DNA of 64,000 nt. It comes from Eledone cirrhosa (Eukaryota). Positions 8,161 through 55,500 of this stretch are shown here, one piece after another. The notes under the pieces are model-generated. The model did not search any database, had not been told where the DNA came from, and was given only the letters and a program-made list of their open reading frames with translations. The stretch lies in assembly GCA_964016885.1 (NCBI GenBank), contig OZ024740.1:427428001-427492000 (forward strand), given 5' to 3'. A program made the translations under genes and the position numbers. Each line of letters begins with the position of its first letter. Position 1 is the stretch's first letter.

Positions 8161-8825
8161 GATGCCAACAATAAGTTTCTGATGTTTTTCAGATCAGATA
8201 TTGTCCCGTCTCTAGCAACCATCTGCTTGTTGATTCACATCTTTGCTGTTGTTCATTGTATCTCCATGTTCCCAGCAGTTGTGATCGTTCTTATTTTCTT
8301 TTTAAACTAAATCACATATAAATATAAAATTAACACGACCCCTACTGTAAAGATATACTGGCAGTAAATCATACAACGAAAGTAGCGCTGGCAAACATAA
8401 CATCAGCAATGGCGTTGTTAATGGACGGCAGTAAGGGAGTCTTTGTTAGGAGGCACAACCTGCTAGAAAAGAAACAAAAGTCGGTTATCCATCGAATTAA
8501 CCGATACTGTCTTTAAAATTAAGGCACTTTGCAGATTTTAATCCTGGAAATATACAACGGAACCATGTACACAGTTGAATGGTCTTTGCTCAAAGGTCGG
8601 CTTCATCAGAGATGACACGGGGATAAAAAACAGTCAACAAGGATATAAACATCAACAGAACCAAAATTTAAAGTGTAGTAGAAATATTCAGGGGAGCTGG
8701 ACAGAAGGGCTTCGGAGAAGAAAACCCATCAAACGAGCGTCTCGATCGTTAACTTCTTTCACTCTAAGGGGGCCGAACCACATCCAGGCCATGACACGTA
8801 TATGTATATATATATATATAAGGAA

Positions 8826-9050
8826 AAAATATGAAATCGAAAATGCAACTGGAGTCTTTTTTTTTTTAAATATATATTTATTTGGATCCTTTACCGGTTT
8901 CGCAGTTCTTCTGCTTTTCAAAAGTAGAATTGAGAAAAACTACAAACCCTCCATCTCAATTCTACTTTTGAAAGGCATAAGTACTGTGAAACTAGTAAAG
9001 GAAATAAATATTCTTAAAAAGACTCCAGTTGCATTTTCGATTTCTTATAC
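8826..9050. repeat. Imperfect inverted repeat with a U3-A8 variant hammerhead motif in each arm
   Basis: Arms GAAATCGAAAATGCAACTGGAGTC / GACTCCAGTTGCATTTTCGATTTC. Minus strand 8888-8924 reads CUU UUGAAAA GCAG-AAGAA-CUGC GAAA CCGG UA AAG. Confidence 0.7.
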
Positions 9051-9171: not shown

Positions 9172-9252
<81 letters not shown>

Positions 9253-9711
9253 TAAAAGGAAAAGAAAATGCTGACAAATATTTCCCAGTGAAAAATAGTT
9301 TAATTAGGAATAAGAAAAAATTAGTAATAAGTATTGGTTAGTATTCAGTTTTAGTTTTAAGTTTTTACCGGTTGCGCATTTCTAATGCTTTTCAAAAATA
9401 ATTTTGAGATAGAGCGCCTGTGATGTTTGCTCTAATCTGATCAGTTTTGGAAATTCTACCTGTTTTATGTGAAAAAAGTGGCTCTAGAGCTATTAAGATT
9501 TGGTTGGTTGTTGAATGTCACGTGAATAAGTACTATAAATTTCGCGCCAATTCGTGTTACAAAAATTATTGTAGTCAAAACAATTTTGATTGGTCGATAG
9601 AGGTCACGTGAATGTTAAAAATTGATTTTGCGCCAAATATAGGTTTGTCGAAGAGTGTCCTTTTTCGCCTGATTGAGAAGTCACTGAAAAATAAGTCTTT
9701 TAAAACAAATA

Positions 9712-9808
<97 letters not shown>

Positions 9809-10368
9809 GTGTGTGTGTGTGTTTGTATGTTAGTGTACGCGTGTGTATGTGTGTGTATATGTGTGTGTATATGTGTGTATATATTATATATGTGTGTGTG
9901 TGTGTGTGTGGATGGACCAGTATTTTTGTGATACTGGTAAAATTGGTGTACATTATTCGATATTTTCAGTAATTTGCAAAAACGATTCTCTCAAAAGAAC
10001 ATCAAAAACATTAATAATAAAAGGGGTGAAATGATGTATAGTATTGTCATAACACCAAGGTGTGTGTGAGTGTCCAGATTGTACGTACTGCAAGGGGAAT
10101 CCATTAGGCCTTGCCGTATTGGAATACTTTTGTACAAATATGTATGTGCCCATCAGTGTGCAATGCATGTGTGCGTATATGTATGTGTGTGTGTCGGCAC
10201 GTTTGTATCTATAGAAATCAAAAGGTATGCGTATTTGTGTATATTTGTGTTGCACCATAGAACATGTGTGTTTACGTATGTCATTGTGTTTATATGTGGA
10301 TAGAAATGTATGTAGGATGTATGCTGATGTAGGTATGTATGTTGACGTGTGCATGTTGTGGGTTCGTC

Positions 10369-10911
10369 TTAGGGAGAAGTGTTTAGACGGGGTCCGTATT
10401 TGTTAATAAAGTGAGATTCCTTGCTGATGCGCTGGGTGTGGGTGGCATTATCTTTACATTTGTAGAAGGGAAAGATTCTAAAGTTGGGATGATTTTGGGC
10501 GGCACAGGTATCAATGTGTTCACTCAGTGGTATTTTCCTGTATTCCCGTATTTTAATTTGGGATCTATGGACAGTCATGCGTTGGCGGAGGCTGTGTTTG
10601 GTCTGGCCTATGTATTGTTCTCGACAACCTGAGCAAGTTAATACATATATTAGGTTTTCTGATACGCATGTGAAATTTTGTTTTACTATAAAACGTTGTC
10701 CTTCTTTGAAATAGAATTCCGAACCCTCTATTAGGTTAATGCATATGCCACAGTTGGGTCTATCGCATGTTTTTACTGTGGGTTTCATTGTTGTAGTTGG
10801 CAGTACTTTGGCATGTGTTAGGATGTTTTTCATTGACTTAGATTGTCTTTTGCTCTTTATGATGTCGTGTGTTCGAAGGATTTGGTTCATTCTATGGTCC
10901 TTTTTTAACAC
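10369..10911 (-). pseudogene. Penelope GIY-YIG endonuclease domain
   Basis: CDRPNCGIC...TCVSENLIYVLTCSGCREQYIGQTKHSLRQRMTVHR...ESHFINKYGPRLN. Confidence 0.9.
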
Positions 10912-11165
10912 AGGGATGTTCTGGAGGATGGTGTCAATGGCCTCATCGTTGAGGGGGTTGTGTGTGGAGATGCATGGAAGAGCTTTTAGTTTCGGTTGAT
11001 TTACTTTAGGGTGTCTAAGGTCCTGGGTACTGAGTTTTAGGGCATGTTGGATTCCATTGTCAATTAGTGATGCAGGGTAGTGCCTGCCTATGAGTATGTC
11101 CTTTAGTTCTTGTAGCCGTAAGTAACAGGTGTTTTTATTGGAGACTATAGTACAGATTCTCTTGG

Positions 11166-12404
11166 CTAAGTTGTAGGGAATATTAATTTTAACGTGTCTA
11201 GGGTGGCAAGAGTTGAAAGGAAGATATTGCTTGGAGTCTGTGGGCTTGAGTATATGTCTGTTTCGATTTTTTTGTTATGAATCTTAATGAGGATGTCGAG
11301 GAAGGGGAGTTGTTGATGGCTGTATTCTATCGTAAAGTTAATATTCATGTTGAGCCCATTTATAAGGGTGTGAAATACTTTAAGTTTCTCGATGTTTTCT
11401 TGCCAAAGGATGAAGCAGTCATCTAGATATCGCTTCCAGTTCTTTTCTATGTGTAAGTGGAGAGTGTTTCAAAATTTGTTTAGTACATTAGTATAGAGGA
11501 TGATTTCCAGGTATCCCATGACTAGGTTGGCATAAGTGCGGGCTGTTTTTTTTTCCCATAGCGGTCCCAGATTTTTGCCTGTAGGATTTGTTATTGAAAA
11601 CGAAGTAATTGTTCTCCAAGCTAAATTTGAGTCCCTCTATCACGAATTCTTTTTTGATGCGTTGTGGGAGTTCATTGTGGAAATTATCCAGCCAGAATTG
11701 GATAGCTTCTATTCCTAGGTTGTGGAGGATGTTGGAGTATAGGTTGACTACATCGAAGTCACTAGTAGGGTTTGTTCAGAAAGGGGCATATTAGGGAGGT
11801 GATTGAGCATTTCTAGGTCGTCCCTTATATAGCTTTTGATGTGTTTGAGAAAAGGCTTGAGAAGGGTATCAATGAAGTTGCTAAGGCGGTGGGTTTCGCA
11901 AGCGGGGCCTGCTATTATAGGTCTTAATTTGAGATCATTGGGTGAGGGGACATTGATGACTATGTCTGTGGCTTCCTTGCATGCCTTACTTATTGATTCG
12001 CTTTTATGTACTTTAGGGATACCGTAGAAAAGGCTGGATTTACTTGTGAAGTCTGTGATGAAGCTGAATTCCTTGTTAGTGAGTTCTTCTTTGTATTGGT
12101 TGATCAGAGTTTTTAGGTTTCTCATAATTTTCTGTTGATTGTAGTGTTCAGCCTTTTCGTAGTATGTTTCGTTTTTCAAAGTGGAGAGCCCTAAGTTGAT
12201 ATAGAATTCTGTCTCCATTAGGACTACTGTACTCCCTTTATCAGCCTCTTTAATTGTAATAGTTCTGTCGGTTTTTAATCTATTTAATTCTTCCCATTCT
12301 TTCTTGTTGAGGTTTGGCTTGTGTTTTTGTCTGTGCAAGTTTTGGTAAGGGAAGTTTGTGATGTGTTCACAGAATTCGTCCAGGATTTTATTTATACCTT
12401 TCAC
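11166..12404 (-). pseudogene. Penelope reverse transcriptase (frameshifted)
   Basis: ORFs 11748-12404 and 11166-11348, with RT motifs in other frames between them. Confidence 0.85.
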
Positions 12405-12885
12405 TGAGTCGTAACTTTCTACAGAAGTCTGTGATGTCTTCCTTCATTTCATAGTAGTTAGGACGTAGTGGGGTCGGTGTGAATTTAAGACCTTTGGAGA
12501 GTAAGTTGATAAGGTTGGTGTTGGTTCTGCACTAGTTAGATTGATAATTCTTATTACTCTCGGTTTCTCCTCCCTCTATTGTGTTATTTTGTTTGCCTGT
12601 ATCTGTGTGCTGTGTCTAAAAAATGGTTGGGGTAGAGGGGTTGTCTGGTGATGTTAAGTGGTCTCCTGTGTTTGTTATATTCCTTGTTGTTGTAAAATGG
12701 GGTTCGGGTTCGTGTTTGTGGCTTGAATGGGGTGTTCCTGTATTGCAAGTATGGATGAGTGTTTCTATGTGCCATGTTGGATTGTGGTGTTATAGGTGGC
12801 CTACGTTGTTGGTTGTATCATGTGGTGTGGGTTTGTTGTGTATTGTGGAAGCGAGAGTTGAGAAAATGGAAATTACCCTGCTGTC

Positions 12886-12968
<83 letters not shown>

Positions 12969-12972
<4 letters not shown>

Positions 12973-13890
12973 AGTATGTACACGTACATACATATATGTA
13001 TACAGACGTACAGTAGTATGTATATATATATACATACATGCCCACATATATATATATATGTACGTATGGATTCACCGAACATTTATTATAATGCTCGGTG
13101 TGTTAGTAAAAAACATCCGTATTAAGCCGTAGTGTCTAGCAACCATCGTTGCTCGTTTGTTCAACACTGACAAAGGAATGCTGTACTAGTTTCAAGCTTA
13201 TTAGCTATCGTCAGCAACGTATACCTTCCTGCCAGATTGTTGAACGTATGAAAGTATATACTTTCCTTATGCATATTAACGACTGAGTATCCCAATTTGC
13301 ATATCGAGTGAATTAGTCGGCCGGGTGCACCGAAAACGATAAACAGAAAAAATGAAACTAAATTTCATTTCCCACTCTTAGTACGGCTGTTACTTAAATA
13401 TAAGTATTTACACGTACATACATATATGTATGCAGACGTACAGTAGTATGTATATATATATACATGCACACATATATATATATATGTACGTATGGATTCA
13501 CCAAACATTTATTATTATGCTCGGTGTGTTTGTAAACAAACATCCCGTATTAAGCCGTAGTGTCTAGCAACCATCGTTGCTCGTTTGTTCAACACTGACA
13601 AAGGAACGCTGTACTAGTTTCAAGCTTATTTGTCAGTGTTGAATAAACGAGCAACGATGGTTGCTAGACACTACGGCTTAATACGGGATGTTTGTTTACA
13701 AACACACCGAGCATTATAATAAATGTTCGGTGAATCCATACGTACATATATATATATATGTGTGCATGTATGTATATATATATACATACTACTGTACGTC
13801 TGTATACATATATGTATGTACGTCTACATACTTATATTTAAGTAACAGCCGTACTAAGAGTGGGAAATGAAATTTCGTTTCATTTTTTCC

Positions 13891-13895
<5 letters not shown>
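12969..13895. mobile_element. ~430-bp HHR-containing tandem plus inverted repeat (retrozyme / Penelope pLTR-like)
   Basis: 12971-13400 is repeated from 13401 to 13630, followed by an inverted copy at 13631-13895. Flanked by (TA)n on both sides. Confidence 0.85.
13178..13220 (-). ncRNA. Minimal type I hammerhead ribozyme
   Basis: GUUG CUGACGA UAGCU-AAU-AAGCUU GAAA CUAG UA CAGC, with palindromic stem III and an extended stem I. Confidence 0.85.
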
Positions 13896-14392
<497 letters not shown>

Positions 14393-14449
14393 TTTCGTTT
14401 CTGAATTTGTTTAGCAAGATTCGTTATCTGAAAACGTGTCTTGAAGCCG

Positions 14450-14713
14450 ATATTGTTATGCTTTGGGAGGGTCATGTTGCCAATAAGAAACACACGCACC
14501 AGTTGCTTTTACTTCAATTTGAAGAGGTCACAGAATGTGTGACGAAAGAACTTTGATAATATATGAACAACCGTCCGGTTATGGAACCAACCAACCAACC
14601 GGAAATTTATAAATTCTTAAATTTATAAATTTAATTTATAATAAATTGGAGTGAAAACAACTGGTGCGTGTGTTTCTTATTGGCAACATGACCCTCCCAA
14701 AGCATAACAATAT
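14450..14713. repeat. ~70-bp inverted repeat between (TA)n tracts, with a decayed HHR-like motif
   Basis: 14450-14520 vs 14643-14713. TTGAAGA G GTCACA..TGTGAC GAAA lies at about 14519-14549. Confidence 0.75.
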
Positions 14714-21180: not shown

Positions 21181-21244
<64 letters not shown>

Positions 21245-21401
21245 TGGAATAAATGCTCTGAAATAGCGATATATATGTGAATATAGACATAGAATATTCG
21301 AAAATATTCTGTATGTTTATAATAAACATTTTGAAGACCTAATCGCTATAGAATAGAATACGTCACGTATTACAATTAGATTCTCGATAAAAGCAAGGGA
21401 A

Positions 21402-21444
21402 GTAATCTACGCGTTTCATTCTTGTTAGAAATCATCAGGACTAC
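21402..21444 (-). ncRNA. Type I hammerhead ribozyme (array copy L1)
   Basis: GUAGUC CUGAUGA UUUCU-AACA-AGAAU GAAA CGCG UA GAUUAC. Confidence 0.9.
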
Positions 21445-21711
21445 ATATCCAGTGCTTTTATCGAGAATGACACAGCTAGAGACTTATAGAATACTTAGCT
21501 GTGTACGGGAACTGGTTTGAAAGAGCGGTTGCCGGTCCGGCAGAAATTAGAAATTGGAATAAATGCTCTGAAATAGCGATATATATGTGAATATAGACAT
21601 AGAATATTCGAAAATATTCTGTATGTTTATAATAAACATTTTGAAGACCTAATCGCTATAGAATAGAATACGTCACGTATTACAATTAGATTCTCGATAA
21701 AAGCAAGGGAA

Positions 21712-21754
21712 GTAATCTACGCGTTTCATTCTTGTTAGAAATCATCAGGACTAC
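21712..21754 (-). ncRNA. Type I hammerhead ribozyme (array copy L2)
   Basis: Identical to L1. Confidence 0.9.
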
Positions 21755-22021
21755 ATATCCAGTGCTTTTATCGAGAATGACACAGCTAGAGACTTATAGA
21801 ATACTTAGCTGTGTACGGGAACTGGTTTGAAAGAGCAGTTGCCGGTCCGGCAGAAATTAGAAATTGGAATAAATGCTCTGAAATAGCGATATATATGTGA
21901 ATATAGACATAGAATATTCGAAAATATTCTGTATGTTTATAATAAACATTTTGAAGACCTAATCGCTATAGAATAGAATACGTCACGTATTACAATTAGA
22001 TTCTCGATAAAAGCAAGGGAA

Positions 22022-22064
22022 GTAATCTACGCGTTTCATTCTTGTTAGAAATCATCAGGACTAC
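22022..22064 (-). ncRNA. Type I hammerhead ribozyme (array copy L3)
   Basis: Identical to L1. Confidence 0.9.
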
Positions 22065-22331
22065 ATATCCAGTGCTTTTATCGAGAATGACACAGCTAGA
22101 GACTTATAGAATACTTAGCTGTGTACGGGAACTGGTTTGAAAGAGCGGTTGCCGGTCCGGCAGAAATTAGAAATTGGAATAAATGCTCTGAAATAGCGAT
22201 ATATATGTGAATATAGACATAGAATATTCGAAAATATTCTGTATGTTTATAATAAACATTTTGAAGACCTAATCGCTATAGAATAGAATACGTCACGTAT
22301 TACAATTAGATTCTCGATAAAAGCAAGGGAA

Positions 22332-22374
22332 GTAATCTACGCGTTTCATTCTTGTTAGAAATCATCAGGACTAC
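22332..22374 (-). ncRNA. Type I hammerhead ribozyme (array copy L4)
   Basis: Identical to L1. Confidence 0.9.
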
Positions 22375-22641
22375 ATATCCAGTGCTTTTATCGAGAATGA
22401 CACAGCTAGAGACTTATAGAATACTTAGCTGTGTACGGGAACTGGTTTGAAAGAGCGGTTGCCGGTCCGGCAGAAATTAGAAATTGGAATAAATGCTCTG
22501 AAATAGCGATATATATGTGAATATAGACATAGAATATTCGAAAATATTCTGTATGTTTATAATAAACATTTTGAAGACCTAATCGCTATAGAATAGAATA
22601 CGTCACGTATTACAATTAGATTCTCGATAAAAGCAAGGGAA

Positions 22642-22684
22642 GTAATCTACGCGTTTCATTCTTGTTAGAAATCATCAGGACTAC
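22642..22684 (-). ncRNA. Type I hammerhead ribozyme (array copy L5)
   Basis: Identical to L1. Confidence 0.9.
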
Positions 22685-22951
22685 ATATCCAGTGTTTTTA
22701 TCGAGAATGACACAGCTAGAGACTTATAGAATACTTAGCTGTGTACGGGAACTGGTTTGAAAGAGCGGTTGCCGGTCCGGCAGAAATTAGAAATTGGAAT
22801 AAATGCTCTGAAATAGCGATATATATGTGAATATAGACATAGAATATTCAAAAATATTCTGTATGTTTATAATAAACATTTTGAAGACCTAATCGCTATA
22901 GAATAGAATACGTCACGTATTACAATTAGATTCTCGATAAAAGCAAGGGAA

Positions 22952-22994
22952 GTAATCTACGCGTTTCATTCTTGTTAGAAATCATCAGGACTAC
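22952..22994 (-). ncRNA. Type I hammerhead ribozyme (array copy L6)
   Basis: Identical to L1. Confidence 0.9.
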
Positions 22995-23461
22995 ATATCC
23001 AGTGCTTTTATCGAGAATGACACAGCTAGAGACTTATAGAATACTTAGCTGTGTACGGGAACTGGTTTGAAAGAGCGGTTGCCGGTCCGGCAGAAATTAG
23101 AAATTGGAATAAATGCTCTGAAATAGCGATATATATGTGAATATAGACATAGAATATTCGAAAATATTGAACAAGAATGAAACGCGTAGATTACTTCCCT
23201 TGCTTTTATCGAGAATCTAATTGTAATACGTGACGTATTCTATTCTATAGCGATTAGGTCTTCAAAATGTTTATTATAAACATACAGAATATTTTCGAAT
23301 ATTCTATGTCTATATTCACATATATATCGCTATTTCAGAGCATTTATTCCAATTTCTAATTTCTGCCGGACCGGCAACCGCTCTTTCAAACCAGTTCCCG
23401 TACACAGCTAAGTATTCTATAAGTCTCTAGCTGTGTCATTCTCGATAAAAGCACTGGATAT

Positions 23462-23504
23462 GTAGTCCTGATGATTTCTAACAAGAATGAAACGCGTAGA
23501 TTAC
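23462..23504 (+). ncRNA. Type I hammerhead ribozyme (array copy R1)
   Basis: GTAGTC CTGATGA TTTCTAACAAGAAT GAAA CGCG TA GATTAC; predicted cleavage after 23498. Confidence 0.9.
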
Positions 23505-23771
23505 TTCCCTTGCTTTTATCGAGAATCTAATTGTAATACGTGACGTATTCTATTCTATAGCGATTAGGTCTTCAAAATGTTTATTATAAACATACAGAAT
23601 ATTTTCGAATATTCTATGTCTATATTCACATATATATCGCTATTTCAGAGCATTTATTCCAATTTCTAATTTCTGCCGGACCGGCAACCGCTCTTTCAAA
23701 CCAGTTCCCGTACACAGCTAAGTATTCTATAAGTCTCTAGCTGTGTCATTCTCGATAAAAGCACTGGATAT

Positions 23772-23814
23772 GTAGTCCTGATGATTTCTAACAAGAATGA
23801 AACGCGTCGATTAC
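23772..23814 (+). ncRNA. Type I hammerhead ribozyme (array copy R2, GUC site)
   Basis: As R1, but C at 23808 gives a GUC triplet. Confidence 0.9.
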
Positions 23815-24081
23815 TTCCCTTGCTTTTATCGAGAATCTAATTGTAATACGTGACGTATTCTATTCTATAGCGATTAGGTCTTCAAAATGTTTATTATAAA
23901 CATACAGAATATTTTCGAATATTCTATGTCTATATTCACATATATATCGCTATTTCAGAGCATTTATTCCAATTTCTAATTTCTGCCGGACCGGCAACCG
24001 CTCTTTCAAACCAGTTCCCGTACACAGCTAAGTATTCTATAAGTCTCTAGCTGTGTCATTCTCGATAAAAGCACTGGATAT

Positions 24082-24124
24082 GTAGTCCTGATGATTTCTA
24101 ACAAGAATGAAACGCGTAGATTAC
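24082..24124 (+). ncRNA. Type I hammerhead ribozyme (array copy R3)
   Basis: Identical to R1. Confidence 0.9.
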
Positions 24125-24391
24125 TTCCCTTGCTTTTATCGAGAATCTAATTGTAATACGTGACGTATTCTATTCTATAGCGATTAGGTCTTCAAAATGT
24201 TTATTATAAACATACAGAATATTTTCGAATATTCTATGTCTATATTCACATATATATCGCTATTTCAGAGCATTTATTCCAATTTCTAATTTCTGCCGGA
24301 CCGGCAACCGCTCTTTCAAACCAGTTCCCGTACACAGCTAAGTATTCTATAAGTCTCTAGCTGTGTCATTCTCGATAAAAGCACTGGATAT

Positions 24392-24434
24392 GTAGTCCTG
24401 ATGATTTCTAACAAGAATGAAACGCGTAGATTAC
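24392..24434 (+). ncRNA. Type I hammerhead ribozyme (array copy R4)
   Basis: Identical to R1. Confidence 0.9.
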
Positions 24435-24836
24435 TTCCCTTGCTTTTATCGAGAATCTAATTGTAATACGTGACGTATTCTATTCTATAGCGATTAGGTC
24501 TTCAAAATGTTTATTATAAACATACAGAATATTTTCGAATATTCTATGTCTATATTCACATATATATATATATACGCACACACATATATATATACTGTTT
24601 ATTAATTTACTTTTTATTAATCGATGACAAGCGGATTCCATACGGAATTCGAAATTATGAGTACCTTAATTTGTTCATATGTTAATCTATCGCTACAATA
24701 ATTACACTGTCTCCATAGCTTAGGCTTCTGGCTGAGAAGGTTGTATTACAATTAATCCAGTGCGTGTGCTCCAAATCACCTTGACCAAATTGTAAACATC
24801 GAGATCGAATCGCAATCACCGCATATGACTCTAAAC

Positions 24837-42425: not shown

Positions 42426-42609
42426 AGGAAAACAAGAGATAAATAAATTAATTAATAAAAGATAAGTGGGGGTAAGAGATATAAGAAAGAAATCTAGAAA
42501 AGAAGCAGACGACATCTGCTGAGAATGGGAAGGCAGAAGGAAATGTGGAAGGAAGAATAAAAAGGTGAATATTTCATAAGACATGTGAAGAAATAGAATG
42601 GAGGTGACT

Positions 42610-45600
42610 AACATAGCACTATAGAGAGAGATATAACATGACACTATAGAGATATATAACATAACACTATAGAGAGATATAACATAACACTATAGAGATA
42701 TATAACATAACACTATAGAGAGAGATATAACAACACTATAGAGAGATAACACATAATACTATAGAGAGATATATCATAACACTATAGAGAGATATAACAT
42801 AACACTATAGAGATATATACCATAACACTATAGAGATATATAACATAACACTATAGAGATATATAACATAACACTATAGAGATATATAACAACACTACAG
42901 AGAGAGATATAACATATCACTATAGAGATATATAACATAACACTATAGAGAGAGATATAACATAACACTATAGAGATATATAACATAACTCTAGAGAGAG
43001 AGATATAACATAACACTATAGAGAGATATAACAACACTATAGAGAGAGATATAACAGCACTATAGAGAGATATAACAACACTATAGAGAGAGATATGACA
43101 TAACACTATAGAGAGAGGTATAACAACACTATAGAGAGATATAACATAACACTATAGAGATAGATATAACAAAATTATAGAGAGATATAATATAAAATTA
43201 TAGAGAGATATAACATAACACTATAGTGAGATATAACATAACATTATAGAGAGAGATATAACAACAATATAGAGAGATATAACATAAAACTATAGAGTGA
43301 TATAACATAACACTATAGAGAGATATAACAACAATGTAGAGAGATATAACATGACACTACAGAGAGATATAACAACACTATAGAGAGATATAACACAGCA
43401 CTATAGAGAGAGATATAACATAACACTATAGAGAGATATAACATAACACTATAGAGAAATATAACAACACTATCGAGAGATATATAAGATAACACTATAG
43501 AGAGATATATAACAACACTGTAGAGAGTTATAACATAACACCCTAGAGGGATATAACAGAACACTTTAGAGAGAGATATAACAACACTATAGAGAGAGAT
43601 GTAACAACACTATAGAGAGCTATAAAAACACTATAGAGAGAGATATAACATTATACTATAGAGAGAGATATAACATAACGTTATAAAGAGATATAAATAA
43701 ACACTGTAGAGAGAGATATAACACTATAGAGAGATATAAAATAACACTATAGAGTGAGATATAACAGCATTATAGAGAGAGATATAACATAACATTATCA
43801 TGAGATATATCATACCTCTGTACAGAGAGATATAACAAGACTATAGAGAGGTATAACATAACACTAAAGAGAGATATAACAACACTATAGAGAGAGATAT
43901 AACATAACACTATATAGAGAGAGATATAACATAACACTATAGAGAGAGATATAACAACACTATAGAGAGATATAACATAAGAGTATAGAGAAAGATATAA
44001 CAACACTAGAGATAGAGATATATAAAATAACATTATAGAGAGAGATATAACATTACACTGTAGAGAGATATGACATAACACTACAGACAGGGGGAGATGT
44101 AACAAATCTATAGAGAGTTATAACCACACTTTAGAGAGATATAACATTGCACCACAAAGAGATATAGCAACACTAAATATAGAGAGATATAACAACACTA
44201 TAGACAGATATAACAGCATTATTTAGAGAGATATAACATAACACTATAGAGAGATATAACATAACACTATAGAGAGATATAGCAACTCTATCGAGAGAGA
44301 TATATCGTGACGCTACAGAAAAATATAGCATAACACTATAGAGAGAGATATAACATAACACTATAGATAGATATATAAACAATATAGAGAGAGATATAAC
44401 ATAACACAATAGAGAGAGATATAACATAACACTATACAGAGATATAACATAACATAATAGAGAGATATAGCAACACTATCGAGAGGAATATAACATAACA
44501 CTATAGAGAAATATAACTTAACACTATAGATTGAGAGCGATATAACATAACACTATAGTAAGATATAACAACATTATAGAGATATATAACATAACACTAT
44601 AGAGAGATATAGCAACTCTATCGAGAGAGAGATATCGTGACGCTACAGAGAAATATAGCATAACACTATAGAGAGAGATATAACATAACACTATAGATAG
44701 ATATATAAACAATATAGAGAGAGATATAACATAACACAGTAGAGAGAGATATAACATAACACTATACAGAGATATAACATAACATTATAGAGAGATATAG
44801 CAACACTATCGAGAGAAATATAACATAACACTATAGAGAAATATAACATAACACTATAGATTGAGATATAACAACACAATAGAGATATATAACGCAACAC
44901 TATAGAGAGATATAACACAACACTATAGAGAGATATAACACAAGACTGTAGAGAGAGATATAACATAACACTATAGAGAGATATAACATAACACAATAGA
45001 GGGATATAACAACATAATAGAGAGAGATATAACATGTCACTATAGAGAGAGATTTAACAACATTATAGCGAGAGATAGAACATAACACTATAGAGAGATA
45101 TAACAACATTATAGAGAGATATAAGATAACACTAAAGAGAGAAATATAACATAACACATTAGAGAGATATAACAACACTATAGAAAGATATTACCTAACA
45201 CTATAGAGAGAGAGATAACATAACACTATACAGAGAGATATAACATAACACTATAGAGAGATATAACATAACCCTATAGAGAGAGATATAACATAACACT
45301 ATAGAGAGATATCACAACATTATAGGGAGATATAACATAACACTATAGAGAGATTTAACAACCCTATAGAGAGATATAACCTAACACTATAGAGAGATAT
45401 AACCTAACACTATAGAGAGAGATATAACATAACACTATAGAGAGGTATAACAACACTATAGGGAGATATATAACATAACACTATAGAGAGAGATATAACA
45501 TAACACTGTAGAGAAATATAACATAGCACTATAGAGATATATAAAATAGCAATATAGAGAGATATAACAACACTATACAGAGAGATATAACATGACACTA

Positions 45601-48600
45601 TATAGAGAGAGATATAACAACACTAGAGAGAGATATAACACAACACTATATAGAGAGATATAACAATACTATAGAGAGATATAACAATAGTATAGATAGA
45701 AATAAAATAACACTATAGAGAGATATAACATAACCATATAGAGAGATATAACAACACTAGAGTGAGAGATATAACATAACACTATATAGAGATATAACGA
45801 CGCTATAGAGAGAGATATCACATAACACTATAGGGAGATATAACATAACACGATAGAGAGATTTAACATAACACTATAGAGAGATATAACATAACACTAT
45901 AGAGAGAGATATAACCTAACACTTTAGAGTGATATAACATAGAGAGATATAACAACACTATAGACTGTGATAGAACATAACACTATAGAGAGATATGACA
46001 TAACACTATAGAGAGACATATAACATAACACTTTAGAGAGATATAACATACAGAGATATAACAAGACTATAGACAGTGATAGAACATAACACTATAGAGA
46101 GATATAACAACACTATAGAGAGAGATATGACATAACACTATAGAGAGAGATATAACATAACAATATAGAGAGATATAACATAACACTATAGAGAGAGATA
46201 TAACAACATTATAAGGAGATATAAGATAACACTATACAGAGATATAACATAACACTGTAGAGAGAGATATAACAACATAATAGAGAGCCATGACATAACA
46301 CTATAGAGAGATATAACATGACACTGTAGAGAGATATAACAACACTATAGAGAGAGATATAACATAACACTATATAGAGAGAGGTATAACATAACACTAT
46401 AGAGAGAGATATAACAACACTATAGAGAGATATAACAACACTAGAGAGAGATATATAACATAACATTAAAGAGAGAAATATATCATAACACTGTAGACAG
46501 ATATGACAACACTACAGAGGGAGATATAATAACACTATAAAGAGATATAATCTAACACTGTAGAGAGAGAGATGTAACAACACTATAGAGAGATATAACT
46601 TAACACCGTAGAGACATATAACATCACTATAGTGAGAGATATAAGATAACACTAAATATAGAGAGATATATCAACACTATAGAGAGATATAACATAACAC
46701 TATAGCAAGATATAATAACAATATAGAGAGATATAACACAACAATATAGAGAGAGATATAACATGACAGTATACAGAGAGATATAAAATAAAACTGTAGA
46801 GAGATATAACGTAACACTGTAGACATATATGACCTAACACTACAGAAGGAGATATAACAACACTATAGAGAGAGATATAACATAACACTATAGAGAGAGA
46901 TATAACAACACTATAGAAAGATATAACCTAACACTATAGAGAGAGATATAACATAACACTATAGAGAGAGATATAACATAACACTATAGAGAGAGATATA
47001 ACATAACACTATAGAGAGATATAACATAACCCTATAGAGAGATATAACATAACACTATAGAGAGATATCACAACATTATAGGGAGATATAAGCTAACACT
47101 ATAGAGAGAGATATAACATAACACTAAAGAGAGAGATATAACATAACACATTAGAGAGATATAACAACCCTATAGAGAGATATAACATAACACTATAGAG
47201 AGAGATATAACATAACACTATAGAGAGATATAACATAACCCTATAGAGAGAGATATAACATAACACTATAGAGAGATATAACAACCCTATAGAGAGATAT
47301 AACCTAACACTATAGAGAGAGATATAACATAAAACTATAGAGAGATATAATAATACTATAGGGAGAGATATAACATAACACTATATACAGAGAGATATAA
47401 CAACACTAGAGAGAGATATAACACAACACTATATAGAGAGATATAACAATACTATAGAGAGATATAACAATAGTATAGAGAGAAATAAAATAACACTATA
47501 GAGTGAGATATAACAATAGTATAGAGAGATATAACAATAGTATAGATAGAAATAAAATAACACTATAGAGAGATATAACATAACCATATAGAGAGATATA
47601 ACAACACTAGAGTGAGATATATAACATTACACTATATAGAGATATAACGACACTATAGAGAGAGATATCACATAACACTATAGGGAGATATAACATAACA
47701 CGATAGAGAGATTTAACATAACACTATAGAGAGATATAACATAACACTATAGAGAGAGATATAACATAACACTTTAGAGTGATATCACCTAGAGAGATAT
47801 AACAACACTATAGACAGTGATAGAACATAACACTATAGAGAGATATAACATAACACTATAGAGAGAGATATAACATAACACTTTAGGGTGATATAACCTA
47901 GAGAGATATAACAAGACTATAGACAGTGATAGAACATGACACTATAGTGAGATAAAACAACACTATAATGAGAGATATAACAAGACTATAGAGAGATATA
48001 ACAACACTATAGAGAGAGATATGAGATAACACTATAGAGAGAGATATAACATAACAATATAGAGAGATATAACATAACATTATAGAGAGAGATATAACAA
48101 CACTATAGAGAGATATAACAACATTATAAGGAGATATAAGATAACACTATAGAGAGATATAACATAACACTGTAGAGAGATATAACAACACTATAGAGAG
48201 AGATATAACATAACACTATATAGAGAGAGGTATAACATAACACTATAGAGAGAGATATAACAACACTATAGAGAGATATAACAACACTAGAGAGAGATAT
48301 ATAACAACATTAAAGAGAGAAATATATCATAACACTGTAGACAGATATGACAACACTACAGAGGGAGATATAATAACACTATAAAGAGATATAACAACAC
48401 TGTAGAGAGATATAACATGACACTACAGAGAGATATAACAACACTATATATACAGAGAGATAACAACACTATAGAGAGATATAACAACACTATCGACAGT
48501 GATATGACATAACACTATAGAGAGAGTTATAACAGAACACTGTAGAGAGATATAGCATAACACTATAGTAAGATATAACAACACTATAGAGATATATAAC

Positions 48601-51600
48601 ATAACACTATAGAGAGATATTGCATTGCAATATAGACAGATATAACATAACACTGTAGAGAGAGATATAACAACACTATAGTGAGATATAACAACACTAT
48701 AGAGAGATATAATATAACACTATATGAGAGATATAACAACACTATAGAGAGAGATGTAACAACACTATAGAGAGATATAAAATTAACACTGTAGAGAGAT
48801 ATAACAACACTATAGAGAGAGATATAAGATAACACTATAGAGAGATATAAGATAACACTGTAGAGAGAGATATAACATCACTATAGAGATATATAACATA
48901 ACATTATAGAGAGAGATATAACAACACTATAGAGAGATATTACAACACTAGAGAGAGATATATAACATAACATTATAGAGTGAGATATAACAACACTATA
49001 GAGAGAGATATATCATAACACTGTAGAGATATATGACATAACACTACAGAGAGAGAGATATCATAACACTGTAGAGATATATGACATAACACTACAGAGG
49101 GAGATATAAAATAAAACTATAGAGACATATAACAACACTGTAGAGAGAGATAACATGACACTAGAGAGAAATATAACAACACTATATAGAGAGAGATATG
49201 ACAACAATATAGAGAGATATAACATAACACTATAGAGTGATATAACACTATAGAGAGATATAACAACACTATCGAGAAAGATATAACATAACACTATAGA
49301 GTGAGATATATCATTACACTATAGATATAGATATAACAACACTATAGAGAGATATAACATAACACTATAGAGAGATATAATCTAACACTGTAGAGAGAGA
49401 GATGTAACAACACTATAGAGAGATATAACTTAACACCGTAGAGACATATAACATCACTATAGTGAGAGATATAAGATAACACTAAATATATAGAGATATA
49501 TCAACACTATAGAGAGATATAACATAACACTATAGCAAGATATAATAACAATATAGAGAGATATAACACAACAATATAGAGAGAGATATAACATGACAGT
49601 ATAGAGAGAGATATAACAACACTATACAGAGAGATATAACATAAAACTGTAGAGAGATATAACGTAACACTGTAGACATATATGCCCTAACACTACAGAA
49701 GGAGATATAACAACACTATAGAGAGAGATATAACATAACACTATAGAGAGAGATATAACAGAACACATTAGAGAGAGATATAACAACACTATTGAGAGAT
49801 ATAACATAACACTATAGAGAGAGATATAACAGAACACTATAAAGAGATATAACAACACAATAGAGAGAGATATAACAACACTATACAGAGATATAACATA
49901 ACACTATAGAGAGATATAACATAACACTATAGAGAGAGATATAACAACACTATTGAGAGATATACCATAACTCTATAGAGAGATATAACATAACACTGTA
50001 GAGAGATATGACATAATAATGTAGTGAGAGATATAACAACACTATAGAAAGGTATAACATAACACTATAGAGAGATATAACATAACACTATAGAAAGAGA
50101 TGACATAACAATACAGAGGGAGATATAACAACTCTATAGAGAGATATAACATAATACTATAGAGTGATATAACAACACAGTAGAGAGAGATAACAACACT
50201 ATAGACAGAGATATAACATAACACTAAAGAAAGATATAACAACACTATAGACAGAGATATAACATAACACTATAGAGAGATATAACAACACTATAGAGAG
50301 TTATAACATAACACTATAGAGAGGTATAACATAACACTATAGAGAGATATAACAACACTATAAAGAGAGATATAACATAATACTATATAGAGAGAGGTAT
50401 AACATAACACTATAGAGAGAGATATAACAACACTATAGAGATATATAACATAACACTATAGAGAGAGATATAACAACACTATAGAGAGATATAACAACAT
50501 TAGAGAGAGATATATAACATAACATCATAGAGTGAGATATAACAACACTATAGAGAGAGATATATCATAACACTGTAGAGATATATGACATAACACTACA
50601 GAGAGAGATATATCATAACACTGTAGAGATATATGACATAACACTACAGAGGGAGATATAATAACACTATAGAGACATATAACAACACTGTAGAGAGATA
50701 TAACATGACACTAGAGAGAGATATAACAACACTATAGAGAGAGAGATATGACAACACTATAGAGAGAGATATTATATAACACTAAATATAGAGAGATATA
50801 TCAACACTATAGAGAGATATAACATAACACTATAGCAAGATATAATAACAATATAGAGAGATATAACACAACAATATAGAGAGAGATATAACATAACACT
50901 ATAGAGAGAGATATAACAACACTATAGAGAGATATAACAACACCTTAGAGAGAGATATAACATACCACTGTAGAGAGATATAACGTAACACTGTAGACAG
51001 ATATAACATAACACTATAGAGAGATATAACATAACACTATAGAGAGAGATATAACATAACACTATAGAGAGATAAAAGATAACACTATAGAGAGATATAA
51101 CATAACACTATATAGAGAGATATAACATAACACTATAGAGAGATATAACATGACACTATAGAGGGATATAAGAACACTATAGTGAGAGAGATATAACACA
51201 ACACTACAATCACATAAAAAAGAAGAGTAGTTTCCTAACATAATGTTTTTCTTTTTTTTGCTTCAAATTTTTATATTCAACTTTCTATCTTTTCTAATTA
51301 TGATTTTACTTCACAAATAAAAAGACGTGGCAAAATTATTTCTCCATAAAAAAATGATATCAATAATTTTATATAAAATAACACTATATAGAGATATAAC
51401 ATAACACTATAGTGAGAGATATAACATAACACTATAGAGAGAGATATAACATAACACTATAGAGAGATATAACATAACACTATAGACAGATATAACAACA
51501 CTATACAGAGAGATATCACATAACACTATAAAGAGATATAACATAACACTATAGAGAGATATAACAACACTATAAGAGAGATATACCAACACTATAGGCA

Positions 51601-52340
51601 GATATAACATAACACTATAGAGAGATATGACATAACATTATAGAGAGATATAACAACATTGTAGAGAGATATAACAACACTATAGAGAGATATAACTTAA
51701 CACTATAGAGAGATATAACAACACTAGAGAGAGAGATATATAATATAACACTATAGAGAGAGATATAACATAACACTATAGAGAGAGATAAAACAACACT
51801 ATAGGGAGATATAACATAACATTATAGAGAGATATATAACAACACTATAGAGAGAGATATAACATAACACTATAGAGGGGGATATAACAACACTAGAGAG
51901 AGAGATATAACATAACACTATATAGAGATATCAAATATCACTATAGAGAGAGATAAAACAACACTATAGGGAGATATAACATAAAACTATAGAGAGAGAT
52001 ATAACAACACTATAGAGATATATAACGCAACACTATAGAGAGATATAACACAACACTATAGAGAGATATAACACAAGACTGGAGAGAGAGATATAACATA
52101 ACACTATAGAGAGATATAACAACACTATCGCGAGAGATATAACAACACTATAGAGAGATATAACATACCACTATAGAAAGAGATATAAAATAACACTATA
52201 GAGAGATATAACAACACTATAGAGTGATATAACAACAGTATAGAGAGATATAACAACACTATAGAGAGGGATATAACATAACACTATAGAGAGAGATATA
52301 ACATAACACTATAGAGAGATATAACATAACACTATAGAGA
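42610..52340. repeat. ~9.7-kb satellite of ~20-25-bp units (CTATAGAGAGATATAACATAACA)
   Basis: Directly visible. Unit length varies via (GA)n and ACATAAC/ACAAC. Interrupted at about 51206-51378. Confidence 0.97.
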
Positions 52341-52437
52341 GGAAGTATTGAACATGGATTACTAGAGTTGATATAATTTCTACCACCATTACTACTACTA
52401 CTACTACTACTACTACTATTAATACTACTACTACTCT

Positions 52438-52560: not shown

Positions 52561-55500
52561 CTTTCTTTATTAACCACAAGAGTTTACTCAAAATCAGACA
52601 TTAAGGACAATACAGGACAATACAGGACAATACAGGACGGTACAGGACGGTACAGGACAATACAGGACAATACAGGACAATACAGGACGGTACAGGACGG
52701 TACAGGACGGTACAAGACGGTACAAATGGACATTTCTGCGTGTAAAAAAAAACAGAGGTTGTAACAAAAAAAAAAAGAAACAATGAAAAATTCTCCAATA
52801 GGGGTGAAACTTCCGAGGGACATTCGTGGAGAAACCCCATTGAAAAATCCACGTTGACCCAGACCACCAGGGCAAGTGCCCTCTCCCAGTTTTCCACCTT
52901 TAATTTACAGACACATACTCAGAGTAGGCCCATTCACTCGGGCCATTCTTGCTTCCCTCACCCATCTTTCAACAAAATGCTGCGAAAAGAGCACTCCCCT
53001 CTCTACCCTGATTTTCCTTTTCAAATGAAATTTGAAAAAGTCAATCAGGGCATCACCGAAGAGGTAAGTGCTCGTCTTCAGCCCTTTCAAACGTGTACAC
53101 CATACTATCTCTTTCACCATGGCCACCAGACAGATAAAAACTCCCTGGGAAGAGGGCGGGGCAATCCTCACGATGGACTCAGCTGATAGCCGGATCCGTC
53201 CTACACGCGACAGCAGGTGTTCGACATAAATCCACAAGTCAGCAATGCTCGGACACTGGATGAGTCCGTGCAGGACGTTTTCGTCGCCCTGCGTGCATCT
53301 CGGACATGCCCGGCTGACGGCACCTCCATGACTTTAGAGTTTATCCCGAACTGGCAAAGCTCCTCGGTAGCACTGCCAGGCCAGGGATTTCTGGAAGTTG
53401 TCCATAGGCCCCGGTTCGAAAGTTATTCCGAAGAGATTGGCTAGTTGATTTTCATCGACGCCTAGAGTTTCCCTAAGTATGTCGTCGCTCTTCCCCTTCA
53501 CTAGTCCTCTATAGAACGCAAGGTTGAGTTTCCACCGATCACATTGCCCGATTGGTCGAGGGCTATGAGCGCCTGAAGACATTCCTGTCTCCAAGCGCTA
53601 CCTCTCGGTCTTCGCTTGACTCAGGACTGCAGCTCCCTCAAGGATACGATCTGGGGAAAGACGCGACTAGCAAATGGCGATCACACCTGATCACCACCGA
53701 GGAAGAGGTGGAGAGGTCGTAGCCTAAGCGCGTGTCTGTCCATCATCAGCTCCTGCATACCCAGCCCTCCACGTAGCGGGTGTCGACCGTTCATTCTCAC
53801 CACAGAGCAGATGTCGCTGTGCATGGCAGCGATCCAGCCTCTGAAGACGGGCCCAAAGCCATCCGCCCTCAGGACTGCCGCCAGATAACGATAGTCGACC
53901 CTATCGAAAGCTTTCGACTGATCTAAATTGATCAAGGATTCACCCGTGCCAGGTTCCCTAGCTACCCTCTCCACGATGTATCGCATGAGGTGGAGGTTGT
54001 CGTGGATGGATCTGTTGGGAATGGCGCATGTCTGCGCCTCTCCCACCAGACCACCAACGACAAGCGCCAACCTCTTTGCTAGCACCTTGGCCAAAATCTT
54101 GAACTTTGTGTTTAGCAGAGTTATGGGCCTGAAATTATCTACGTTATCCCCCTTGTTCGGATCCTTTCTCAGCAGCGCCACCGCTCCTCGGCTCACAGAG
54201 CTGGGAATTCTCCCGTTCTGTAGCCAGTTGCAGTAGACGTCCGCCAAGAGGCCTCCGAACAAGTCTGGCATCTGTACGTAAAGTTCATAGGGCAGACCAT
54301 CCAAACCACGCGATTTACCCCTTGTACAGCCAGTCATTGCCTTCCGTACTTCAGCGGCTGTTATCGGCTTCTTACAACACTCCGTCTCAGTGGGCGAGAG
54401 CCGCGGCAGTCCGTCGAAGTAGGCACTAAAGTCCATCCTTCGATCCGGCGCGCCGCTGCCCGCGAACAGCTGAGCGAAGTGTCGCTGAAAAGCTACCCAT
54501 TTTCCCGGGATCGAGTAGAATGCGCCCATCGTGGTTCACCAAAGACCGGATCGTGGCTTTGTTGCCACGACGCGCCTCCGCCACTCGGGCCCATTGAATA
54601 GCTTTCGTCCCCTCGTGTCTGAGAGCACGCACCCTAGATCTGACAACGCAGCCTTCGTGCTTTGCATTGAAGAATTGGTCAAGAGCCAATTTCGCCGTAG
54701 CGATGCCTTCGCACCGAAGTCTAATTTTCTAACTAGTTCTCCCTCTGCTCTATTTTTATTTATTGCTAAAGCCTTACTAAACCTAATGGACTCTATTCTA
54801 ATCGCTCTTTTCAGAGCAAACCACCACTTGTTGTTGACGATGGCTCCCGTCAACGCCCGCTTAACTAGTTCACTAATCCTGGCTCTGTAGGCCTTGCGCG
54901 CTGTTAATGACGCGTTTAGCTTCCAGTAGCCGGGTCCCTGTCTATGAAGCCTATCTAAGTCAACCTCACAGATCACGAATTTGTGGTCTGTGTAGTCGAC
55001 TATTTTGAAATGTGGACAGCCTATGCTAGACCTACCTATTTCCCTACAAAATACCCTATCTAGATATGATCTGGATGACCCGATACGATTTGTCCATGTC
55101 CACATTGGTACATGCGGGAAATCCAGACGGTACCTGCCAGACAGTTGAAACCGTCTGAGCAGATTTGCGAGGCTTTTACACCCTCCTCCCTATCTGCTAA
55201 TCCCACACAGTCCCATCGTGCATCTAAGATCCCGTTCCAGTCGCCCTCTAACACTAAAGAGCGGGACGTTCCAAGAAAGGTCTCCAGACGCCGGAAGAAA
55301 TCAGACCGCCCTGCTCCTGTCGGGGCGTAGACGGCCACTAGCTTGAAAGCTGCCCGTCTCCACTGGTCACGTCCAGCACCACCAACTTACCTTCTGGGTC
55401 CAGGAAGATGGTCCGTATGGCGAGATCCAAGCCTCTCTGAAAAAGCACAGCCACTCCTCCCCCGATCCAGGACGGCTGGGAGATGTGTACACATCATAGC

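Follow-up and report, generated by a model that had tools for sequence, protein, structure and literature searches.

A 428-bp hammerhead repeat of Eledone cirrhosa, which carries no ORF, is probably a retrozyme whose RNA is copied by a Penelope-like (PLE) reverse transcriptase-endonuclease into (TA)n DNA, on both sides of a cut, a reading to which we give a probability of about 0.72. A PLE-type enzyme is the likely mover; the insertions bear the PLE-type signature of two internal 3' ends, a tail at one end only and an inverted 5' copy. The locus under study lies in a 64,000-nucleotide stretch of the genome (the window), whose positions are used in Table 1. It consists of 428-430-bp units arranged as 1.55 direct copies and a 268-bp inverted arm, all between (TA)n tracts. 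The left arm is 663 bp long, with a unit spacing of 428-430 bp and overlapping parts that are 94.5% identical, and the inverted arm is 95.5-97% identical to it; because the hammerhead lies on the minus strand, the two arms are read as RNA outwards from the junction, in opposite directions. The arm coordinates and the 2-nt overlap at the junction confirm the tandem and head-to-head architecture that the original prediction had read from the letters, and both arm starts lie where it had placed them, the left in loop II of the second hammerhead and the right 9 nt beyond the predicted cleavage site. The window copy, with one complete and one cut hammerhead, is itself old and ordinary. Sequence related to window positions 13062-13440 occurs in contigs of three other organisms, and is whole in one of these contigs.

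Table 1. Features at and around the 428-bp retrozyme locus (window positions)
Feature	Position	Strand
Neptune-like PLE (RT pieces, Cys linker, GIY-YIG), 5'-truncated and frameshifted; separate insertion	9250..12888	-
(TA)n target tract, from retrozyme short end to truncated 5' end of neighbouring PLE	12889..12964	.
Left arm, 1.55 units, minus-strand RNA sense; 3' end is short site A	12968..13630	-
18-bp interrupted stem I extension enclosing the hammerhead	13159..13245	-
Type I hammerhead: 6-bp stem I, core, U.U plus 4-bp stem II, minimal palindromic stem III	13178..13220	-
One full monomer, 428 nt, cleavage site to cleavage site	13184..13611	-
Second hammerhead, 3' half, loop II cut by junction	13606..13630	-
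Head-to-head junction, 2-nt overlap	13629..13630	.
Right (inverted) arm, unit positions 10-273; 3' end is long site B	13629..13896	+
56-nt tail between A and B, ending at hairpin base; long end only	13841..13896	+
(TA)n target tract, long end	13894..13956	.
Third hammerhead element: truncated head-to-head copy of the pLTR of an ORF-bearing PLE, TA-flanked	14394-14713	
310-bp array, one long and one short end	21241-24567	

The hammerhead that had been proposed at 13178-13220 is borne out; it lies in minus-strand orientation (13220-13178), cleavage being predicted between 13184 and 13183, and is not a chance motif, as its core has 10,643 exact matches in the genome and the reversed control has none. 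The type I core (CUGANGA, GAAA and UH) is present with stems I-III in type I order. The enclosing extension of stem I folds as claimed (z -3.1, with 2 of 200 shuffles as good) and is paired in 96.7% of cells among 37 hand-picked copies. Covariation within these 37 closely similar copies is slight, with one stem I pair changed on both sides. A stem I pair varies among 156 copies as U.G (109), A-U (24) and G.U (12), and the C.A mismatch in stem I of the window copy (13219/13179) is common to 20 of the 156. In the hammerhead consensus a purine-pyrimidine pair closes stem II. That pair is absent from 152 of the 156 copies, in which a U.U at the base of stem II is the family norm, as it also is in the 310-bp family described below. 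The 428-nt monomer RNA is strongly self-paired (z -5.7, with none of 100 shuffles as good). Among the 150 matches listed of 168 in an Rfam scan there is no hammerhead family, and the matches are to hairpin microRNA only, below cut-off. Cleavage may be weak with U.U at the base of stem II and a stem III of 1-2 bp; the layout of the three stems, with a minimal palindromic stem III, agrees with that of the metazoan type I hammerheads which PMC4209133 describes as working as dimers, and only one of nine retrozyme dimers tested from Xenopus cleaved (bioRxiv 10.64898/2026.07.22.740005).

Other genomic copies of the unit are numerous. When the genome was searched at the DNA level, 2,505 candidates spread over many contigs emerged, of which 40 were scored, at 94-96% identity, and tandem arrays range from 2 to at least 35 units. 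We analysed 118 loci, namely 79 that cover the first 100 listed pattern matches on contig C1 and 39 top DNA hits. Twenty-eight apparent tail-to-tail contacts with overlaps of 41-47 nt were excluded as products of the internal palindrome of the unit, and one false pair (L099) was dropped.

These copies have ends comparable to those of the window copy: 160 of 189 outer arm ends lie at site A (76) or site B (84), within windows that were set after inspection of the data and cover 8% of the unit. Site A lies about 217 nt and site B about 273 nt after the cleavage site, 56 nt apart, and (TA)n follows 133 of the 160 canonical ends. Head-to-head pairs number 62, at 59 of the 118 loci, against two true tail-to-tail contacts. 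Where both ends of a pair are canonical, 42 of 44 combine A with B, two are B+B and none is A+A; in the position-ordered sample the count is 24 of 24. One or both ends are at a non-canonical position in 18 of the 62 pairs. Six more A+B loci and no A+A came from another twelve stretches, which were picked because they showed opposite-strand or multi-unit patterns.

The pairs might simply be two independent insertions, or products of DNA recombination, that came to lie back to back in one TA tract, and nested insertions do accumulate in such tracts. This explanation is scarcely credible and is largely refuted by the 42 of 44 pairings of A with B together with the common lineage of the two arms, which diverge by 3.9% within a locus compared with 7.8% between loci (34 pairs). 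The arms are, moreover, nearly always head to head, and their junctions are mostly direct, with overlap or blunt contact in 42 of 62. Overlaps of 2-9 nt account for 30 of the 62 junctions, overlaps of 1 nt for three and overlaps of 10 nt or more for four; five junctions are blunt and 20 have inserted bases. The original prediction had also tied the junction to the cleavage site, through the cut at loop II and the start 9 nt beyond the site, and this tie is due to chance: junction ends fall within 15 nt of the cleavage site in 9 of 124 cases, with 8.7 expected.

An inverted arm could also arise by fold-back self-priming, in which a single cDNA is copied back on itself, as is proposed for rotifer PLEs (PMC3846280). 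The close relationship of the arms of one locus agrees with this, as do a few palindromic junctions at which both arms start at nearly the same place (6 of 63, and also a young locus, L229), although those six are close to the 4.6 expected by chance. The model is contradicted for about half of the pairs: 20 of the 42 A+B pairs have arms of which neither lies wholly within the other, so that neither could be a partial copy of its partner, and 20.5 such pairs are expected from shuffled pairs if the arms are independent. Arm lengths in the 42 A+B pairs are uncorrelated (rho -0.03), and the longer arm may be either one (23 against 19). We consider fold-back distinctly improbable as the source of the inverted arm. 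Because arm lengths are independent, the arms share a lineage and junction microhomology is frequent, the sequence comparisons favour two cDNAs primed from both sides of one break in a single event over either fold-back or separate insertions.

The RNA that would serve as template for these two cDNAs is unlikely to be, as a rule, a cleaved linear monomer, because in 36 of 63 pairs each of the two arms extends across the cleavage site, a share that is inflated by the choice of all loci for a hammerhead or for a long match across it. A circular RNA template is plausible from the arrangement of the units. Two young loci each hold seven full units: those of L226, distributed over both arms that end at A and B, have 0-1 differences, and those of L229 have 0-3. 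At L225 (G000:C1:49583300-49589800), 420- and 422-bp units that are 13 differences apart alternate, and the alternation extends into both arms; units of these two lengths also alternate, with a dimer period, at L099. As proof of a dimer circle this alternation is weakened, since L099 and the identical centre of L225 fit a recent block duplication, and identical units could in part reflect later DNA-level expansion or assembly polishing, as in the central block of L225.

Alternatively, the same enzyme could use uncleaved multimeric transcripts of tandem arrays instead of circles, the hammerhead then being dispensable for insertion. Work in vitro on the anole PLE showed that mutation of the hammerhead leaves insertion normal and that the enzyme mainly uses unprocessed RNA (PMC11167929), and long arrays able to give multimers exist, as at L227-L228 (G000:C1:51772000-51788500), an old heterogeneous array of at least 35 units in which a retrozyme has turned satellite. 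Its units are mostly 10-28 differences apart, however, in contrast with the near-identical units in both arms of L226 and L229, and the alternation of two units in both arms of L225 is what a dimer circle is expected to give. A multimeric template is quite possible, although we lean against it.

The element is best read, from its sequence organization, as a non-autonomous non-LTR retrozyme. It has one type I hammerhead per 428-bp unit, which fits the 150-450-bp unit size of non-LTR retrozymes, and it is filed as such because long arms run on into further units and no ORF attachment was found. The original prediction had left it to be checked whether the unit is the pLTR of an ORF-bearing PLE or an ORF-less retrozyme; the unit proved to be ORF-less, with no ORF attached in the sampled loci. 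Neither 70 GIY-YIG loci (from 10,595 genome candidates, of which 150 were scored) nor 71 stretches downstream of endonucleases in a second endonuclease screen yielded a pLTR with homology to the unit, nor was the unit found directly flanking an RT plus GIY-YIG ORF in the sampled loci. It could nonetheless be such a pLTR, with all copies being truncated PLEs: an ORF-bearing hammerhead PLE of the same genome agrees with it in ends and architecture, and the roughly 130 loci examined are a sample of thousands. This is very improbable, however, since 57 of 126 paired arms are longer than one unit and continue into another, 65 single arms have no upstream sequence in common in the sense orientation, and the ORF-bearing hammerhead PLE, sampled likewise as a control, shows its ORF in many of 30 loci. 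The repeat is a new, well-defined family of a known kind of element. In bioRxiv 10.64898/2026.07.22.740005 an 'active' retrozyme is defined by at least two consecutive complete hammerheads per locus, which are absent at the window locus and present at other loci of the family.

The PLE copy adjacent to the window locus (Table 1) had been put forward as a supplier of RT and endonuclease, which is not borne out for this copy: its coding sequence is broken into four frames, about 1,030 bp are missing from the 5' end, and an internal stretch of about 66 bp is also lost. Its GIY-YIG domain scores above the Pfam cut-off and an upstream CX2-5CxxC linker is visible in the translation; the name Neptune-like rests on this C-terminal domain and linker rather than on an RT phylogeny. 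Other copies of this PLE continue upstream without TA. It has no homology to the 428-bp unit, its DNA occurs within 1.5 kb of none of 29 other top unit loci, and of 19 other copies of this PLE only one is close to a unit, which lies at the opposite end. At 20 of the 118 unit loci, the window locus included, there are neighbouring protein fragments from PLEs of several types, and the adjacency is accordingly attributed to the shared (TA)n target.

The Neptune-like family, as distinct from its broken copy, could still be the specific supplier of RT and endonuclease. It is abundant (4,101 candidates), it uses the same (TA)n target and has two ends, and it shares a short pyrimidine motif with the unit at one end (3 of 300 shuffles). 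Its tail of about 40 nt differs from the 56 nt of the unit, however, and it has no canonical hammerhead and no homology to the unit. The motif lies at its short end but at the long end of the unit; in eight comparisons, two Neptune-like families have a short end that is weakly similar to the long end of the unit (0 and 3 of 300 crude shuffles), so that the end registers do not match. The same target serves at least five Neptune-like families as well as PLEs of other types, and a 57-nt tail was found instead in one hammerhead PLE. It is therefore unlikely that this family is the specific supplier, and it is one of several unranked candidates. Among its own loci, the three with both ends visible comprise two short plus long and one long plus long. 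The at least five Neptune-like families at L155-L224 are TA-flanked, most with two 3' ends, and their scanned 3' regions contain no canonical hammerhead.

The one-short-one-long arrangement extends to other hammerhead elements. The 310-bp and 428-bp units are unrelated in sequence, with a best match of 11 nt, as had been predicted; the 310-bp family has 9,246 core matches, and in the window array and nine further loci all six pairs with both ends canonical are A+B, with one further pair having a non-canonical end. The ORF-bearing hammerhead PLE has 6,119 core matches and a 57-nt tail, and eight of its eight directly joined pairs are A+B (the window copy and seven among 30 loci, some overlapping); the window copy has its long end on the left and its short end on the right. 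These counts support the suggestion that independent families share one insertion mechanism. A search with the terminal-hairpin pattern as a route to a partner ORF led instead to a sister retrozyme with a 466-bp unit, which has 8,935 matches and is 68% identical over the region with A and B; its hammerhead has different but paired stems, with G-C at the base of stem II. This 466-469-bp sister family forms long tandem and head-to-head arrays at L306 (G000:C1:5738400-5741425). Elsewhere in the window there are the 3' end of a different PLE family, close to half of a hammerhead-like motif (8542-8890), a further hammerhead-like match on the plus strand (36621), a 23-bp minisatellite of about 420 copies (42609-52341) and broken fragments of an L1/Tx1-like LINE, recognized by eye from endonuclease and RT pieces (53684-55189).

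L1 elements provide a precedent for two-sided priming. In L1 twin priming, two target ends prime two cDNAs that are joined head to head by microhomology; on one linear RNA, priming takes place once at the poly(A) and once at an internal site that varies, which gives non-overlapping arms. In contrast, the two starts of the 428-bp unit are fixed and its arms overlap over several units.

A closer comparison is the anole Poseidon element (PAc), which in vitro cuts and extends both strands and has two internal RT start sites that bound the tail (PMC11167929). The ends of the unit resemble these, being two internal sites that bound a tail away from the hammerhead cut, and an AT-rich target is common to both; PAc is also predicted to act as a dimer. 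PAc is an autonomous element, unlike the 428-bp unit. Pooled reads showed no difference between strands in the start site used by PAc (Frangieh 2024, PMC11167929), and the main text of that paper does not address how start sites are paired within one event.

Craig 2021 (PMC8557442) reports head-to-head PLE copies, a tail that is frequently confined to one end and insertion into (TA)n targets. In EN+ PLE insertions (PMC3846280, PMC8557442, PMC4209133) the tail is 30-40 bp long, compared with 56 nt in the unit, and the 428-bp unit, unlike those insertions, has no ORF; for the unit, the one-end tail rule has been counted and set against the self-priming model. Retrozymes have been proposed to be non-autonomous PLE derivatives in PMC7229834 and bioRxiv 10.64898/2026.07.22.740005. 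Neither the accessible account of metazoan non-LTR retrozymes (Cervera and de la Pena 2020, PMC7229834) nor that of Li et al. 2026 (bioRxiv 10.64898/2026.07.22.740005) describes insertion ends, head-to-head arms or A/B pairing; the latter links retrozymes to pLTR sequences, whereas no homologous pLTR was found for the 428-bp unit. A literature search of titles and the beginnings of abstracts, outside subscription journals, found neither PLE-type paired ends on retrozymes nor twin priming by PLEs. Published work already covers this class of element, its head-to-head shape and the one-sided tail; the useful part is the rule of end pairing.

In the mechanism that we propose, the retrozyme RNA would self-cleave, probably as a dimer, and then circularise; a PLE protein dimer would cut both strands of the self-complementary (TA)n; the two 3'-OH ends would prime reverse transcription, one of them at A and one at B; the resulting cDNAs would each read through the hammerhead sites of a circular or uncleaved multimeric RNA; and the 3' ends of the cDNAs would anneal by a few bases, each then templating the second strand of the other. 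The wider proposal that PLE enzymes integrate by concerted double priming, in which a dimer on a palindromic (TA)n uses two fixed sites of the RNA and rolls round a circle made by the hammerhead, is tentative and falls only somewhat short of an even bet.

In the literature compared here, the integration of animal retrozymes and the origin of tandem and inverted PLE insertions with a tail at one end are both open questions. The presence of PLE-type ends on a ribozyme repeat that encodes no protein links retrozymes with PLEs through their mechanism, beyond co-occurrence or sequence, and the rule of one short and one long end, together with independent arm lengths, is a sharp prediction for the existing in vitro PLE system. 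If the proposal is correct, these insertions would be a direct genomic record of animal retrozyme circles mobilised by PLEs, and concerted double priming would explain the one-sided tail and head-to-head repeats of PLEs generally.
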